Made by a program: the position numbers and the translations under genes. 64,000 nucleotides of DNA from an uncultured Clostridiaceae bacterium (GTDB lineage Bacteria; Bacillota; Clostridia; TANB77; CAG-508), in the NCBI GenBank assembly GCA_947577025.1, contig CANPTO010000012.1:1484-65483 (forward strand), read 5' to 3'. The notes beneath the pieces are model-generated. The model was not told the DNA's origin. It was given only the letters and a program-made list of their open reading frames with translations, and searched no databases. Shown piece after piece: positions 59,884 to 64,000 of this stretch. Every line of letters begins with the position of its first letter. Position 1 is the first letter of the stretch.

Positions 59884-59920
59884 AAAACCTCAGTGAAAAA
59901 TCACTGAGGTTTTTGTTTTT
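59884..59920 (-). terminator. terminator downstream of the 60-64 kb operon
   Basis: Stem aacctcagtga / tcactgaggtt flanked by an A-run and a T-run (bidirectional). Confidence 0.7.
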
Positions 59921-59999
59921 AAAGATTTATAAAGTTTTATTCTCACTAACAAACCCTTCGTTTTCGTCAATATTTAAAATAATCACATTTTCCTCCTTG

Positions 60000-60842
60000 C
60001 TAATTTGCATTTACGCAATTCATTGAATCAAAGAATTTACTCATACAATCTACATTAGATGAATCTCTTAATGACATTCTAGCCATATCGAAGTTTAACA
60101 TTGAAAATACTATTATTACTAAATCTGAAGAATTTAGTTTAGCAAGCATATTTAAAGTTTCGTATTCAAATTTTTGCATTTCCAATGCTATTACTATTCT
60201 ACTGTTTGAATAAGATCTGTAATTTTGACGACGTCTAACTGCATCAATTATATTTAATAAATATTTATGTCTTACAGGTTTAGCAAAAATTTTTAGTGGT
60301 GCATTTATTCCTGCATAATGCATTGCATTTTCATCATCACTAGAAGCATAAATTCCTTCCATAATAAACACGATTTCATAATACAGGACTTCACTTACTT
60401 CATAACCCCTTTTATTGCGTGCATAAGCAAGCAAACTTTCTCCTATGTCGACATAAACATCTGATGTTATTTCTATTTTTCCTAAGAAAAGAAGATTATC
60501 TTTCATTTCCTCTAAACTAAGTACATTGTTAATAGCAACATCTGAATTCATTCCGAAAACTCCAATCATATTGTTATCATTTCTTCCTGATGTAATTACT
60601 TCAATACAGCTTTTTAATCTAGCAGTTGCACTATTTATTCTCTCTAACACAGTTTCTTCATTTTCTGTATTTTCTATTTCATATTCATCCTCTAACTGAT
60701 TTTCTTGTTCTACTACTAAAGTTTCATTATTAGAGCTATTGCTATTTTTCGTTCTAATATTCACTTGTTTTTTTGGGTTTTGTGCTGAATCATCTTGGAA
60801 CCGAATAACACGATTAAATGACATATTTTTTTCTCCTCTCAT
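60000..60842 (-). CDS. hypothetical protein (274-280 aa), last gene of the operon
   Basis: The ATG at 60842 overlaps the upstream stop codon (ATGA). An alternative ATG at 60824 follows a GAGGAG site. There is an in-frame CGG at 60801-60803. I recognise no family. Confidence 0.5.
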   Translation of the reverse strand: MRGEKNMSFNRVIRFQDDSAQNPKKQVNIRTKNSNSSNNETLVVEQENQLEDEYEIENTENEETVLERINSATARLKSCIEVITSGRNDNNMIGVFGMNSDVAINNVLSLEEMKDNLLFLGKIEITSDVYVDIGESLLAYARNKRGYEVSEVLYYEIVFIMEGIYASSDDENAMHYAGINAPLKIFAKPVRHKYLLNIIDAVRRRQNYRSYSNSRIVIALEMQKFEYETLNMLAKLNSSDLVIIVFSMLNFDMARMSLRDSSNVDCMSKFFDSMNCVNAN

Positions 60843-62230
60843 AAATTTAATGTAGGAATTAATAATATTTTTGCCTTTTGCTTAATTCCAGTTTTGAATT
60901 TTCCATTTTCAAAAACTTCATAAAACAAACTTCTTGCTTCTAAAGTGTACTTTTCTTTCAAATATTTATGATTTCTTCGAAAGTCTAATTCACTTCTTGA
61001 ATCGCTAACATATTTAAAAATTTCTTGTAAAGCACTTTCTAAATCAAGTTTAACGTTGGTATCTGTACTAGCAACAAAATTGTATTTTTGCCCATCATTT
61101 AAAATTTTTTTGGGTAAAGTTTTGAAAAAACTGTATGCCTTTACATATTCTTCAATGATTGACATTTCTATGTTGTTGCTGGTTTCATATGTGTATGCAC
61201 CAAACTTTTCTTTGATAATGTTTAACCTTTCTTCCCTTATTTCTAAAGGAATTTGGTCTTCCATTATAGAAGCTTTAGTTTCTAATACTTGCTCATAACT
61301 TGCAACTGCAATATCAGCAAAATATCCTTTTTGTAAATATTCAACTAGATTTTCAAACTCTAGCTTAGTTTCACCAGGAAACCCAACTATAACTTCTGTT
61401 GAAATCAGTATATCTGGTCTTACTTCTCGCAATTTTTGAATTCTAGCATCAGTAAAATCAAATGATGGCCTATTCATTTTCTTGAGGATCGGATTTGAAA
61501 CATGCTGAATATGTAGCATTATCTCTGTAATATTTCTATTTTTAGATATAACAGAAATCATTTCATCTGTTAACCCTGCAGGATGAAACCATCCAATTAC
61601 ATAGTTACAATTTGGAAACTCTGTGCAAACTTTTTGCATTAAATTTGGAAAACTTTTCCTTCCATATAAGTCGATCCCATAGTCAGACGTTTCCTGTGCT
61701 CCTGTAAGATATATTGTTGTTTCTGTTTCATATAAACTTTCAATCTCCAAAAGCACTTTTTCTATAGGTTTGCTTTTATATTTTTTACAAATTATGGAAT
61801 ATATACAGTATGAACACTTTTTCAAACAGCCTTCTGAAACAATTACTTTATTTTGAGGAACAATTTTTTTCAAAGGATAAATTTCTTCTCTTCTAAAGAA
61901 GTGAATTAATTCTTCAAAACTTTTGACCTCTATTCCAGGAATAGCTTTAAGTTCTTCTCTATTAATGGAAAGTAAACAACCTGTTACAATTACTTTTGCA
62001 TTTGTGAGAGCATTCGCTCTCACATCTGCAATTACTTGTACACTATACTTCTTTGTTTCTCCAAATGCACAAGTTTGTACAATAATTATATCTGCAATGG
62101 TATAATCGCAAACTACATCATAGTCCTCATTTTTAGTAATGTAATTTATAAGTATGTTTACTTGCTCTATATCCATATGCATATCATTACACATTATAAT
62201 AGCAATTTTTTGTTTCATATTTAGCTCCAT
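60839..62230 (-). CDS. MiaB/RimO-like methylthiotransferase-family radical SAM protein lacking an obvious TRAM domain
   Basis: The N-terminal UPF0004-like domain has three spaced Cys (IIMCND, VQTCAF, VTGCLL). The radical SAM motif is CLKKCSYC. The C-terminal 100 aa or so are divergent. An alternative start lies at 62218. Confidence 0.8.
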   Translation of the reverse strand: MELNMKQKIAIIMCNDMHMDIEQVNILINYITKNEDYDVVCDYTIADIIIVQTCAFGETKKYSVQVIADVRANALTNAKVIVTGCLLSINREELKAIPGIEVKSFEELIHFFRREEIYPLKKIVPQNKVIVSEGCLKKCSYCIYSIICKKYKSKPIEKVLLEIESLYETETTIYLTGAQETSDYGIDLYGRKSFPNLMQKVCTEFPNCNYVIGWFHPAGLTDEMISVISKNRNITEIMLHIQHVSNPILKKMNRPSFDFTDARIQKLREVRPDILISTEVIVGFPGETKLEFENLVEYLQKGYFADIAVASYEQVLETKASIMEDQIPLEIREERLNIIKEKFGAYTYETSNNIEMSIIEEYVKAYSFFKTLPKKILNDGQKYNFVASTDTNVKLDLESALQEIFKYVSDSRSELDFRRNHKYLKEKYTLEARSLFYEVFENGKFKTGIKQKAKILLIPTLNL

Positions 62231-62772
62231 TCTTCAAGGTGAACTTCTGATACATTATTTTGATAGTACTCTGGCTTCTTCTTTATGTTACTAATGCTGC
62301 CTAATGCTTTTTCAATAATTCCAAAGTTCATACAGGACTGCCCTTTAAAGCCTGATGTCTCAACATTTATTTTGCCATCATCCCCAATATTTACAACAGC
62401 TTTTCCTCCATTATTTTTGTTTATAAGTTTGATACTTGCTCCAGATTCATAAACTTTGTAGCCATTCTTTTTAGCTTCAATTTTTAGCTTTTCTATAGAA
62501 TATTGCCTTAAAAGTTCATTTCCATTTTTTCCTATGAATCTTTCAACATGTCCATCGTAAAAATCCGCATCAATGTCATATGTTCCGTTGTCTTTGGCTT
62601 CAATTGCTACATCATATTTGCCTGGAAGCTTTATGACGTTTTCTCTAGTTTGAGAACCGTAATAATACCGACATCCGGTATTGTGTTCAAAGCTTAAGTT
62701 CATATTTTGTGCTGCGTTTTTTAAAGCTTCTAAATCTCTAATTTCTGTTGTTATCTTCGTGAAATGGCTCAT
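62221..62772 (-). CDS. DUF1257 (Ycf35-like) N-terminal domain fused to a DUF2997-like C-terminal domain
   Basis: MSHFTKITTEIRDLEALKNAAQNMNL is the typical DUF1257 start. The C-terminal GFKGQSCMNFGIIEKALG resembles DUF2997. Both family assignments are from memory. The in-frame CGG at 62668-62670 is read through in frame. Confidence 0.65.
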   Translation of the reverse strand: MSHFTKITTEIRDLEALKNAAQNMNLSFEHNTGCRYYYGSQTRENVIKLPGKYDVAIEAKDNGTYDIDADFYDGHVERFIGKNGNELLRQYSIEKLKIEAKKNGYKVYESGASIKLINKNNGGKAVVNIGDDGKINVETSGFKGQSCMNFGIIEKALGSISNIKKKPEYYQNNVSEVHLEEWS

Positions 62773-64000
62773 TTTTGCTCCTCCTTTTCAAAACGAATAA
62801 CTCTTTGACATTTTGTTTCTGTTTCATTTTCTTCTACTAATGTTTCCGGTGCAATATTGGCATTTCTAATCCCCTGTGCTGTACTCCAATTTCTTAAAGC
62901 ACTTACTGTATCACTCATTATTCCTTTTGACATTGGCTTAATTTTTGATATAGCAATAATCAAATCTTCTGTAGTATACGGTCTTTTTCCGTCATTCCAA
63001 GCATAAAACATTGATGAAATAACACATTCTTCAATTTCTGCACCAGTATATCCATCAGATAAACTTGCAAGTTTATCAATGTCAAATTCTTCAGCTTTTC
63101 TTTTCCTTTTTTCGATTTGAATTTTGAATATTTCTTTTCGTTCTTCTTCACTGGGTAAATCAACAAAAAATATTTCGTCAAATCTGCCTTTTCTTAAGAA
63201 TTCTGGTGGCAAAGATGAAATATTGTTAGCCGTAGCTATTACATATACTGGTACCTCTTTTTCTTGTAGCCATGTAAGAATTGTCCCAAACATTCTTGAG
63301 GTGACTCCTGAATCTGTTTTTCCACTGCTTCCAACTCCAGAAAGTCCTTTTTCAATTTCATCTATCCACAGAATAGCTGGTGCCATTGCTTCTGCAATTT
63401 CTAACGCTCTCCTCGTTTTTGCTTCTGTATCTCCTACCAAAGAACCGAACAGTTTTCCTATGTCTAATTTAAGTAATGGCTTTTTCCACATATTAGAAAG
63501 AGCTTTGGCTGCTAAACTCTTACCACACCCTGGTATACCTACAAGTAATACTCCCTTTGGATATGGTAGTCCATAATCCTGTGCTTCTTTCGAATATGCT
63601 GAAAATCTTTCTTCTGCATAGTTTATAAATTCTTTCATTCCTCCCACAGTTTCCAATGTTTCTTTCGACTCTGTGTATTCTAGTAAGCCGTCTTTACAAA
63701 TAATTTGCTTTTTTACAGCATTTATAATATATATGTCAAAGTTTTTCATTTTTGAAAAAGCAGTTGTAAATGCATTTTCAGCCTCCAATGTTGTAAGTCC
63801 TATAGCTGCATCTATAACATCCTCAATATTTTCTGGTACATTAACACCATAATATTGACATATTTCTGTTGCTATTTCTTTTAAATTTTCTCGTCCTGGC
63901 AAACTAAGGTTAGTTATAGTTACTTCATGTTCAAGCTCAGGAGGAACATCAAATTTATTGCTTATAAATATATATGTTACTCCACGTGCTTTAGCAGCGC
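62769..64000 (-). CDS. Ycf46-like AAA+ ATPase (C-terminal 410 aa or more; the frame stays open to the window edge)
   Basis: Walker A GIPGCGKS, Walker B ILWIDEIEK, sensor ATANN and arginine finger RKGRFDEIF are present. The frame remains open upstream of the track start at 63902, through position 64000. Confidence 0.9.
   Translation of the reverse strand, partial: AAKARGVTYIFISNKFDVPPELEHEVTITNLSLPGRENLKEIATEICQYYGVNVPENIEDVIDAAIGLTTLEAENAFTTAFSKMKNFDIYIINAVKKQIICKDGLLEYTESKETLETVGGMKEFINYAEERFSAYSKEAQDYGLPYPKGVLLVGIPGCGKSLAAKALSNMWKKPLLKLDIGKLFGSLVGDTEAKTRRALEIAEAMAPAILWIDEIEKGLSGVGSSGKTDSGVTSRMFGTILTWLQEKEVPVYVIATANNISSLPPEFLRKGRFDEIFFVDLPSEEERKEIFKIQIEKRKRKAEEFDIDKLASLSDGYTGAEIEECVISSMFYAWNDGKRPYTTEDLIIAISKIKPMSKGIMSDTVSALRNWSTAQGIRNANIAPETLVEENETETKCQRVIRFEKEEQK

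Follow-up and report, generated by a model that had tools for sequence, protein, structure and literature searches.

The ATPase Ycf46 and the small proteins Ycf35 (DUF1257) and DUF2997 have been conserved hypotheticals for decades: they are found in cyanobacteria, in red-lineage plastids, and in many phages, and they are tied to functions by phenotypic links only. The literature on Ycf46 and Ycf35 describes induction by stress and in the stringent response, an interaction with KaiC, and phenotypes in the circadian clock and in the use of CO2, and it gives no mechanism. The genes ycf35 and ycf46 were lost together in freshwater red algae. In cyanobacteria, DUF2997, ycf35, and fed7 (a ferredoxin) form a gene cluster (PMC4284462). 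Here we describe an operon from an uncultured Clostridiaceae bacterium that combines relatives of all three proteins with a radical SAM enzyme and with a family of fast-evolving proteins. The operon lies at the end of a 64,000-nt stretch of contig CANPTO010000012.1 (assembly GCA_947577025.1), which we will call the window. It consists of four minus-strand open reading frames (ORFs), for an AAA+ ATPase (gene 1), a DUF1257-DUF2997 fusion protein (gene 2), a radical SAM enzyme of the methylthiotransferase type (gene 3), and a protein with no known domain (gene 4). The coordinates and the Pfam results agree with the operon and the domain content that were given in the initial annotation.

We tentatively propose that the operon encodes an AAA+-coupled, tag-directed module for the modification or processing of proteins. 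We favor protein processing because the ATPase is a classical AAA+ motor, the RimO-like enzyme has a swapped domain, the partner proteins resemble substrates, and the partners share a co-varying tag with the ATPase.

The operon has what appears to be the same type of ATPase, both of the small domains, and the same gene linkage as the Ycf46/Ycf35/DUF2997 systems. It differs from them in that DUF1257 and DUF2997 are fused, a RimO-like enzyme and tagged putative clients are attached, and the host is a non-photosynthetic anaerobe. RimO is the beta-methylthiotransferase for Asp88 of ribosomal protein S12, so its substrate is a protein. The radical SAM enzyme of the operon resembles RimO (TIGR01125; PDB 4JC0) in having the UPF0004 domain with three cysteines and the CX3CX2C core, and RimO is its best profile match and a top structural match. 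Unlike RimO, it lacks the TRAM domain and has a helical bundle of ~100 residues instead, it has the sequence C-N-D-M-H-M-D, it scores below the RimO cutoff of 357 bits, and its gene sits in an AAA/DUF operon.

The linkage of the ATPase with DUF1257 and DUF2997 is already known, at the level of annotation, as are the methylthiotransferases. In the literature that we searched, we found no description of the fused DUF protein, of a clade-wide TRAM-less RimO-like subfamily in such a module, or of the shared tail and tag motif, nor any paper in which a TRAM-less methylthiotransferase and an AAA ATPase are linked. The operon stands a reasonable chance of being a new type of protein-modification system.

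Three genes that are conserved together in Clostridia

We compared 30 loci: 27 from a scan of species-representative genomes for the radical SAM subfamily, and 3 that had been fetched earlier. In 28 of the 30, the genes for the ATPase, the DUF1257-DUF2997 fusion, and the radical SAM enzyme are found in this order on one strand, so their adjacency is conserved well beyond this genome. (In the other two, the locus is cut by the end of the contig, or the radical SAM gene is present alone.) The intergenic gaps within the triad are 0-60 nt in most loci. Across the loci, the identities of the three proteins fall jointly (46-80% for the ATPase, 38-79% for the fusion, and 44-76% for the radical SAM enzyme), which fits vertical descent. 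The radical SAM subfamily has full-length matches down to 43% identity, all of them from uncultured Clostridia. The loci come from metagenome-assembled genomes from humans (Hadza and others), roe deer, rumen, and mice, and from Clostridium sp. CAG:245.

Within the clade, the locus is chromosomal, single-copy, and present in every sampled lineage. The flanking genes are housekeeping genes: miaB-mutS is upstream in several loci and asnB is downstream, and lepA, fba, and addAB are also found. The mutS...asnB synteny recurs in lineages that have different accessory genes. The operon had been viewed as a possible mobile accessory module that is bounded by mosaic repeats. Given the housekeeping flanks, the recurrent mutS and asnB, the joint identities of the triad, and the lack of delimiting repeats, we reject this idea for this clade. 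Instead, the operon is vertically inherited and chromosomal in uncultured low-GC Clostridia of the gut and rumen.

The ATPase runs off the end of the window. It comprises an N-terminal domain of ~230 amino acids, the AAA core, the lid, and a flexible C-terminal tail. Pfam identifies PF00004 (1e-27, positions 1-130 of 131) and AAA_lid_3. The catalytic motifs that were initially reported for this Ycf46-like ATPase are all present: Walker A (GxxGxGK, G271-K277), Walker B (D330-E331), sensor 1 (N375), and the arginines of the second region of homology (R386 and R389) are invariant in our alignment, even against phage homologs. There is also a [LIY]-V-G pore loop, and the best matches by sequence in PDB are the D2 domains of Cdc48/p97 (~1e-51). 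By these features, the protein belongs to the classical clade of AAA+ ATPases. It matches phrog_8638 over its full length (8.6e-124), and it is 38-40% identical, over 92-94% of its length, to AAA ATPases from Geminocystis and Pseudanabaena (the copies compared are on plasmids).

For the fusion protein, both domains score above the gathering thresholds of Pfam, as expected from the initial annotation: DUF2997 (PF11211) clearly (38.3 bits versus a cutoff of 24.1; 1.2e-9) and DUF1257 (PF06868) marginally (22.4 bits versus 22.2). DUF1257 is also supported by a match to phrog_20456 (4e-8) and by the Pfam annotation of relatives, and the protein shares its MSH- N-terminus with DUF1257 proteins of phages and cyanobacteria. 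The invariant residues are the MSHF N-terminus, C34-R35, and G144..C147..F150..E154..G158. The G-x-x-G-x-x-C of the DUF2997 part (G141, G144, and C147) is conserved, and the same motif is found in the phage, Bacillus, and Geminocystis copies. The gene is fused and adjacent in all 28 complete clostridial loci. An AlphaFold2 model of the protein has a mean confidence (predicted local distance difference test, or pLDDT) of 83.8; structure searches with this model found no significant match in PDB (best E = 5e-3, template modeling (TM) score < 0.3) or in BFVD (TM < 0.3). The weak matches to folds like that of TATA-binding protein or RnlA are unreliable, and we discarded them.

The radical SAM enzyme has UPF0004 (PF00919, 1.3e-8) and Radical_SAM (PF04055, 5.7e-15) domains. 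Neither TRAM (by Pfam) nor SPASM or the recognition element (RRE) of ribosomally synthesized and post-translationally modified peptides (RiPPs; by Pfam and NCBIfam) was found. Among 31 members of the subfamily, the three N-terminal cysteines of the auxiliary cluster (C10, C50, and C81) show a conservation of at least 90%, and C131, C135, and C138 of CX3CX2C are invariant in the subfamily alignment, so the enzyme has kept cluster ligands of both kinds, those of the radical-SAM cluster and those of the auxiliary [4Fe-4S] cluster. The C-N-D-M-H-M-D around the first cysteine is a signature of the subfamily. In the AlphaFold2 model (pLDDT 92.3), residues ~354-453 form an all-helical bundle in place of the TRAM barrel. 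This domain is specific to the subfamily and is conserved in members with as little as 43% identity; the C-terminal 116 amino acids have no match in PDB. Pfam, the alignment, and the model thus agree with the initial description of a MiaB/RimO-family enzyme with the three N-terminal cysteines and Cx3Cx2C and no TRAM.

All of the NCBIfam scores for this enzyme are below the cutoffs: 189.2 versus 251 for TIGR00089, 181 versus 357 for RimO, 142.7 versus 357 for MtaB, and 123.6 versus 355 for MiaB. The top matches by fold (Foldseek) are MtaB, RimO, and MiaB (1.6e-23 to 4e-19). A profile of the subfamily scores 188 bits against RimO and 101 bits against MiaB, with alignments that stop near residue 336, so the enzyme is closest to RimO, which is the family member that modifies a protein. 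Also, a related genome (L017) has a canonical MiaB (532 bits), whose gene adjoins mutS a short way upstream of the operon, so we view gene 3 as an additional paralog. Both observations strengthen the earlier suggestion that the substrate may be something other than tRNA. The operon does not look like a RiPP maturase system either: SPASM and RRE are missing from the radical SAM enzyme, the tagged partner proteins are folded and have 220-320 amino acids, and no protease or transporter is encoded in the operon.

Outside of the clade, the ATPase and the two DUFs form a module that has been seen before, and the link that was mentioned in the initial annotation is borne out by the Geminocystis plasmid, a Bacillus thuringiensis plasmid, Rhizobium phage RHph_I4, and 34 of 80 viral loci. 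(These 34 have separate DUF1257 and DUF2997 genes within 5 kb of the AAA gene.) Full-length homologs of the ATPase are found in 63 GenBank phages and in at least 80 IMG/VR loci, and the ATPase and both DUFs have PHROG families (phrog_8638, phrog_20456, and phrog_23133). A 475-aa gene downstream of the trio in RHph_I4 was checked as a candidate radical SAM gene and is not one. One IMG/VR locus (L086, 4690-7013) has an AAA gene that is interrupted just past Walker B (..VVLFID). The inserted ~900 nt encode a cysteine-rich ORF of 180 amino acids with CxxC pairs; this could be an intron, a homing endonuclease, or an intein-like element.

A motif shared by the ATPase tail and the neighboring proteins

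The product of gene 4 has no known family: it has no match in Pfam, NCBIfam, PHROGs, or PADLOC, or by profile search in PDB. This much of the initial annotation stands, but the protein is not an orphan. A direct search found 13 homologs with 32-43% identity, on contigs whose radical SAM enzymes are 72-86% identical to gene 3, so gene 4 evolves much faster than the core. By iterative search, 23 of the fetched loci have the family, some of them in as many as 4 copies, mostly directly 3' of the radical SAM gene and sometimes 5' of the ATPase. When 1.84 billion representative proteins were searched with a profile, only 57 members turned up, none of which has a known domain. The proteins begin with M-K-I-x-R-V-I-R-F, continue with ~60 residues of acidic, low-complexity sequence, and then have a globular domain of ~200 residues that is conserved (with the motifs NMIGVFGxNSD and LNSSDLxIIV). 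We also considered whether gene 4 is related to the N-domain of the ATPase and rejected this (hhalign probability of 0.2%).

The ATPase ends with a tail (..TKCQRVIRFEKEEQK) in which RVIRF is set in an otherwise variable linker, and gene 4 has the same pentapeptide at its N-terminus. In a six-frame translation of the window, R-x-[IV]-R-[FY] is found just twice, in these two proteins, and in both cases at a terminus. (The 12-mer peptides that carry the motif are MSFNRVIRFQDD and KCQRVIRFEKEE.) The codons differ (cgt gtt att cgg ttc in gene 4 and aga gtt att cgt ttt in the ATPase), so the motif was kept at the protein level and does not reflect a recent duplication of DNA. RVIRF is invariant in the 13 aligned sequences of the gene 4 family, and in 29 relatives the AAA tail has the pattern [GST]-R-x-[IV]-x-x.

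We built a matrix from AAA tails only (from 20 loci) and scored other proteins from the same loci with it. Scores of at least 10 bits were obtained for 24 of 35 N-termini from the gene 4 family and for 3 of 315 other proteins (Mann-Whitney p = 5e-14; the chance rate is ~0.005 per N-terminus). About 40 of 55 family representatives that were retrieved independently have [RK]-R-x-I-x-[FRS] within the first ~20 residues, and most of the exceptions are fragments. These statistics make a chance match between the sequences unlikely. Some other accessory families have tag-like starts as well: M-x-K-R-x-I-x-x in c8, M-[SP]-R-[KQ]-I-I in c25, and G-R-Q-I-R-Y in c15.

The tails and tags also vary together. 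RVIRF or RQIRF tails are found with R[VI]IRF tags, RVIR[SC] tails with GR[KQR]IR-x tags, and GR[QK]I[YFMI]T tails with [KR]R-x-I-[ILYH]-[FV] tags. The termini of neighboring proteins score 14.6 against the tail from their own locus, as compared to 11.8 +/- 0.5 against unrelated tails, and none of 300 permutations reached the observed value.

In the phage copies of Ycf46, the motif is mostly at the extreme C-terminus, whereas here it is internal, with RVIRF followed by an acidic tail. Most of the viral AAA tails end in R-x-[LIV]-[DQ]-[LIV]. Individual cases of tail mimicry can be found in viruses and on a plasmid. One viral locus (L084) has ..SRVIRREVNR and ..LRVIRRS; another (L085) has ..GRKIKMATC, ..ERRIKV, and ..SRKLKMA; and a third (L154) has RALDL in both the AAA tail and a neighbor. 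On the B. thuringiensis plasmid, the ATPase ends in ..GGRTIDF and an adjacent helix-hairpin-helix (HhH) protein ends in ..SGRMIDF.

Some AAA+ unfoldases have their adaptors or substrates tethered by short peptides. The C-terminal "XB" peptide of SspB (..LRVVK) binds the N-domain of ClpX, and the cofactors of p97 use SHP and VIM motifs. Like these, the motif in the operon is short, basic and hydrophobic, and terminal, with a flexible linker and several partners for one machine. In contrast to these, it also occurs in the tail of the ATPase itself, a protease partner is absent, and its role in docking is putative. Another parallel is with the Pvc15-type AAA+ ATPases of contractile injection systems, which load cargo proteins that have N-terminal signals. 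In those systems too, an AAA+ gene sits beside variable proteins with a common disordered N-terminal signal, and a Treponema homolog of our ATPase is near VgrG/PAAR genes. However, there are no genes for a sheath, tube, or baseplate near the clostridial loci, and the ATPase is of the single-ring Ycf46 type.

Judging from their sequences, the partner proteins are built like AAA+ substrates, with a terminal tag, a disordered linker, and a folded domain. We suggest that the tag serves for docking, as a short peptide by which clients would be brought to a putative receptor on the machine formed by the ATPase and the DUF1257-DUF2997 protein. The ATPase's own tail could occupy the same putative receptor, as a pseudo-substrate or as a latch between subunits. 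The ATPase would then engage the disordered linker and remodel or unfold the client, after which the RimO-like enzyme would add a methylthio group to a protein residue, or perform related radical chemistry on it. This residue could belong to the client, to the tag or tail, or to the fusion protein, and the target would not be tRNA. The DUF1257-DUF2997 protein might be an adaptor, or it might be a redox or sulfur partner that acts via its invariant cysteine.

A broader version of this model, which we find doubtful, is that R-x-I-x-Phi is a targeting tag for the entire Ycf46/Ycf35/DUF2997 machine, so that clients would be threaded by the ATPase and, in these Clostridia, also covalently modified (methylthiolated, for example) by a dedicated radical SAM enzyme derived from RimO. 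The S12 loop that RimO targets is GGRVKD(88)LPG, and the form of the motif in phages and Bacillus, G-R-x-[IL]-D-[LF], resembles it. By this analogy, the modification might fall within the tag or close to it.

Several observations weigh against our proposal. The loci in the co-variation test are related and represent perhaps five or six independent lineages. By the tail matrix, the tag is not clearly present in families c6 or c7 or in the arrays of LRR_5 proteins that some lineages have. Tail mimicry is not significant across the 80 viral loci (55 of 300 permutations reached the observed value), and a second viral test found 4 loci, as compared to 2.1 +/- 1.4 expected. A docking role for the motif across the family is therefore unproven; we claim co-variation for the clostridial clade only and view the viral and plasmid cases as leads. 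None of the 80 viral loci has a methylthiotransferase-type radical SAM gene, and the AAA/DUF module occurs without one in most phages and cyanobacteria, so gene 3 may be a lineage-specific passenger. A few members of the radical SAM subfamily do not have all of the auxiliary cysteines: in P0089, H replaces C50 and D replaces C81, and in P0120, S replaces C50. The latter is, moreover, the single case of a radical SAM gene that was found without genes for the ATPase and the fusion (locus L011). Finally, the loss of TRAM is compatible with an RNA or small-molecule substrate as well.

Gene layout, repeats, and accessory genes

From 59879 to 64000, the minus strand of the window has the four co-directional ORFs and then a hairpin (Table 1). 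The 3' part of the ATPase gene is all that is in the window, and a public metagenome contig (L001), with 1 difference from the window in 7000 shared bases, extends it to the 5' end of the operon. In this contig the ATPase has 526 amino acids, and the first 349 nt of the gene are past the end of the window. The 167-nt spacer in front of it carries TTTACA, 17 nt, and TGgTATAAT (as read from the sequence), so the operon has its own promoter. Upstream of the spacer is a PrmC-like methyltransferase gene, which is separately transcribed and is not conserved beside the operon elsewhere.

Table 1. Positions of the operon's genes and other features in the window
Feature	Position	Strand	Remarks
Ycf46-like AAA+ ATPase gene (3' 1232 nt)	62769-64000	minus	runs off the window; from Pfam, sequence, and contig L001
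DUF1257 (Ycf35-like)-DUF2997 fusion, 183 aa	62221-62772	minus	from Pfam and alignment
RimO-like radical SAM enzyme, 459 aa	60839-62218	minus	alternative upstream ATG at 62230
Gene 4 (putative client; earlier "orphan")	60000-60842	minus	likely true start at 60824
ATPase C-terminal tail, RVIRF (residues 516-520 of 526)	62790-62804	minus	from sequence
RVIRF tag at the N-terminus of gene 4	60798-60812	minus	from sequence and alignment
19-aa ORF, candidate remnant (VIILNIDENEGFVSENKTL)	59927-59986	minus	directly after the stop of gene 4, behind AGGAGG
Intrinsic terminator	59879-59918	minus	18-bp perfect stem, 4-nt loop, flanking A- and T-tracts

Three overlaps of stop and start codons had been reported, and one of these is secure. 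The ATGA at 62769-62772 between the ATPase and fusion genes is genuine because all homologs of gene 2 begin with MSHF. In contrast, the 10-nt overlap of the fusion and radical SAM genes (62221-62230) is probably not real and stems from an in-frame upstream ATG: 30 of 30 homologs begin at the MKQK/MKK position and the public gene calls have 459 amino acids, so the gene probably starts at 62218, 2 nt past the upstream TAA and behind GGAG. Similarly, the ATGA at 60839-60842 is present in the sequence but is probably not the start of gene 4. All 12 homologs with aligned starts begin with M-K-I-x-R-V-I-R-F, so gene 4 probably starts at M7, which is behind GAGGAG and ~14 nt past the stop of the radical SAM gene. 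The genes are still densely packed and clearly form one transcription unit.

The strong terminator that was reported at the end of the operon was also found by folding (dG = -26.8 kcal/mol, z = -8.4; 0 of 200 shuffled sequences fold equally well), and the repeat search lists it as an inverted repeat with 100% complementarity (I11). A scanner for consensus terminators reported 0 sites in 59400-64000, and so missed this clear hairpin; we used the folding result instead. Negative results from the scanner are unreliable in sequence that is as AT-rich as the window. The codon CGG is used in-frame twice in the operon, as had been noted (genes 2 and 4 each have one). Across the window, CGG is rare but ordinary (12 of 15259 codons, in 11 of 46 genes).

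No repeats or integrase delimit the operon; we found low-complexity chance matches and a dispersed intergenic repeat of 93 nt, and no repeat pair flanks the operon. The repeat lies downstream (59632-59724), with copies at 39355-39447 and, inverted, at 54637-54729 (96% identical). It also occurs in L001, at 2533-2625 and 17871-17963. Going upstream from the ATPase, one meets the nearest copy after ~5.6 kb, with five other genes in between. This repeat resembles a miniature inverted-repeat transposable element or a repetitive extragenic palindrome, and it is probably what was initially called mosaic repeats. A second piece, at 59720-59781, resembles 16247-16308.

In the 8 most closely related loci, the homolog of gene 4 is followed by a gene from accessory family c6 (~420 amino acids). 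Here, the 19-aa ORF aligns to positions 1-16 of c6, which begins with MI[IL][LI][ND][IL][ND]E.., and it looks like the stub of a fifth operon gene that was lost. The score is short and weak, and we infer the loss of c6 mainly from the syntenic position of this ORF. Where the relatives have c6, this genome has a gene for a lysine- and glutamate-rich protein of 767 amino acids (57256-59559, minus strand), probably a coiled coil. We considered it as a member of the system and rejected it, as it has no family match, no homolog in the 30 related loci, and no tag. The 10 recurring neighbor families that we tested (c5, c6, c7, c8, c10, c15, and c22-c25) have no Pfam domain.

In one lineage (L010, L032, L033, and L034), the gene 4 family is replaced by arrays of 2-7 LRR_5 (BspA-like) proteins, which lack signal peptides. 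Their genes are placed between and after the fusion and radical SAM genes, and family c10 (390 amino acids) is upstream of the ATPase. The N-termini of proteins in this lineage (..DRIKIIKGES.. and ..KVLRIKDG..) are only loosely like the local AAA tail (..TRKIIRGGD).

Alternative explanations and implications

The initial annotation raised the possibility of a conflict or defense system. In that case, the AAA/DUF core would be the sensor or effector machine of an anti-phage or phage-derived system, its variable, multi-copy neighbors (the gene 4 family, the LRR_5 arrays, and other families with no known domain) would be sensors or effectors that diversify, and the product of the radical SAM enzyme would be toxic or a signal. 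We consider this unlikely. A conserved core with fast-evolving, duplicated, and lineage-replaced neighbors is the typical pattern for such systems, and homologs of the ATPase and of both DUFs are common in phages. The trio on the Geminocystis plasmid is found among genes that resemble those for defense (RloA/RloB-like, zeta toxin, and DUF4007). On pTRESU01 from Treponema succinifaciens (L167, 5369-9593), a 43%-identical AAA gene lies between a radical SAM gene and a VgrG/PAAR spike, near a gpD-like hub. The ATPase core matches IetA in PADLOC (2e-22). However, this match is to the generic AAA core only. The NCBIfam model for IteA (NF042959) gives 66.4 bits as compared to a cutoff of 510, the other three proteins have no match in PADLOC, there is no IetS-type protease in the operon, and the N-domain and the partners differ from those of IetAS (also named IteAS). 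The genomic context does not fit either, with a single-copy chromosomal locus in every sampled lineage, among housekeeping genes, and with no repeats or integrase around it. We did not find the radical SAM subfamily in 2.9 million viral contigs, so we reject the idea that the whole module is phage-borne; also, the 4.1-kb block (by blastn) and the fusion protein (by tblastn) have no match in GenBank phages.

Another idea is that the module maintains an iron-sulfur (Fe-S) or radical enzyme. The radical SAM enzyme would do the work, on whatever substrate, the ATPase would be an "activase" that remodels or resets it, and the fusion protein would feed the sacrificial auxiliary cluster with electrons, sulfur, or a cluster, via its invariant cysteine; a regulatory role, or that of additional clients, would fall to the tagged proteins. 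Methylthiotransferases use up the auxiliary cluster or its sulfur in turnover, and AAA+ proteins of the Rubisco activase type do reset stalled enzymes. The AAA/DUF module is also found repeatedly beside Fe-S proteins: this radical SAM enzyme, Fed7, and small radical SAM proteins with Fer4_12. The Fer4_12 genes adjoin the ATPase on the B. thuringiensis and Treponema plasmids and occur in 5 of the 80 viral loci, and each of these 5 has DUF1257 as well as DUF2997. (The gene order on pBTKNU07-01 from B. thuringiensis, at 3068-6877 of L169, is the radical SAM protein, a 151-aa hypothetical, the HhH protein, the ATPase, and DUF2997.) And the G-x-x-G-x-x-C of DUF2997 is invariant, including in the phage, Bacillus, and cyanobacterial copies. 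On the other hand, each DUF2997 has one universally conserved cysteine and no motif for binding a cluster, and the model of the fusion protein is unlike known carriers of Fe-S clusters or sulfur. The majority of the AAA/DUF loci lack an Fe-S gene within 5 kb, and maintenance of an enzyme would leave the tag that is common to the AAA tail and the clients unexplained. We find this explanation distinctly improbable.

It is very unlikely that gene 3 is an ordinary paralog of the tRNA or rRNA methylthiotransferases that happens to lie beside an unrelated AAA/DUF stress module, with no meaning to the shared RVIRF: the fold and both cluster motifs are as in MiaB, MtaB, and RimO, the first Foldseek hit is the model of MtaB, and one relative has the radical SAM gene alone, but against this stand the missing TRAM and the conserved helical domain, the scores below every NCBIfam cutoff with RimO rather than the tRNA enzymes as the nearest profile, the coexisting canonical MiaB, the strict and compact gene order in 28 of 30 loci, and the motif statistics, which argue against a chance match. 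The rest of the probability we leave to something else.

If our proposal of a tag-directed protein-modification module is true, then it would provide a third class of substrate for the methylthiotransferases and a docking code for a widespread family of AAA+ proteins. If the broader version is correct too, then this would be the first AAA+-coupled radical SAM system for modifying proteins, and it would give the first mechanistic handle on Ycf46 and Ycf35. The clostridial version of the module, in which the small proteins are fused, offers two testable handles: the RimO-like enzyme has a new helical domain where the TRAM domain would bind RNA or S12, and the partners share a motif with the ATPase's own tail. 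Even a failure of the model would leave us with a well-delimited, clade-wide module in abundant gut anaerobes.

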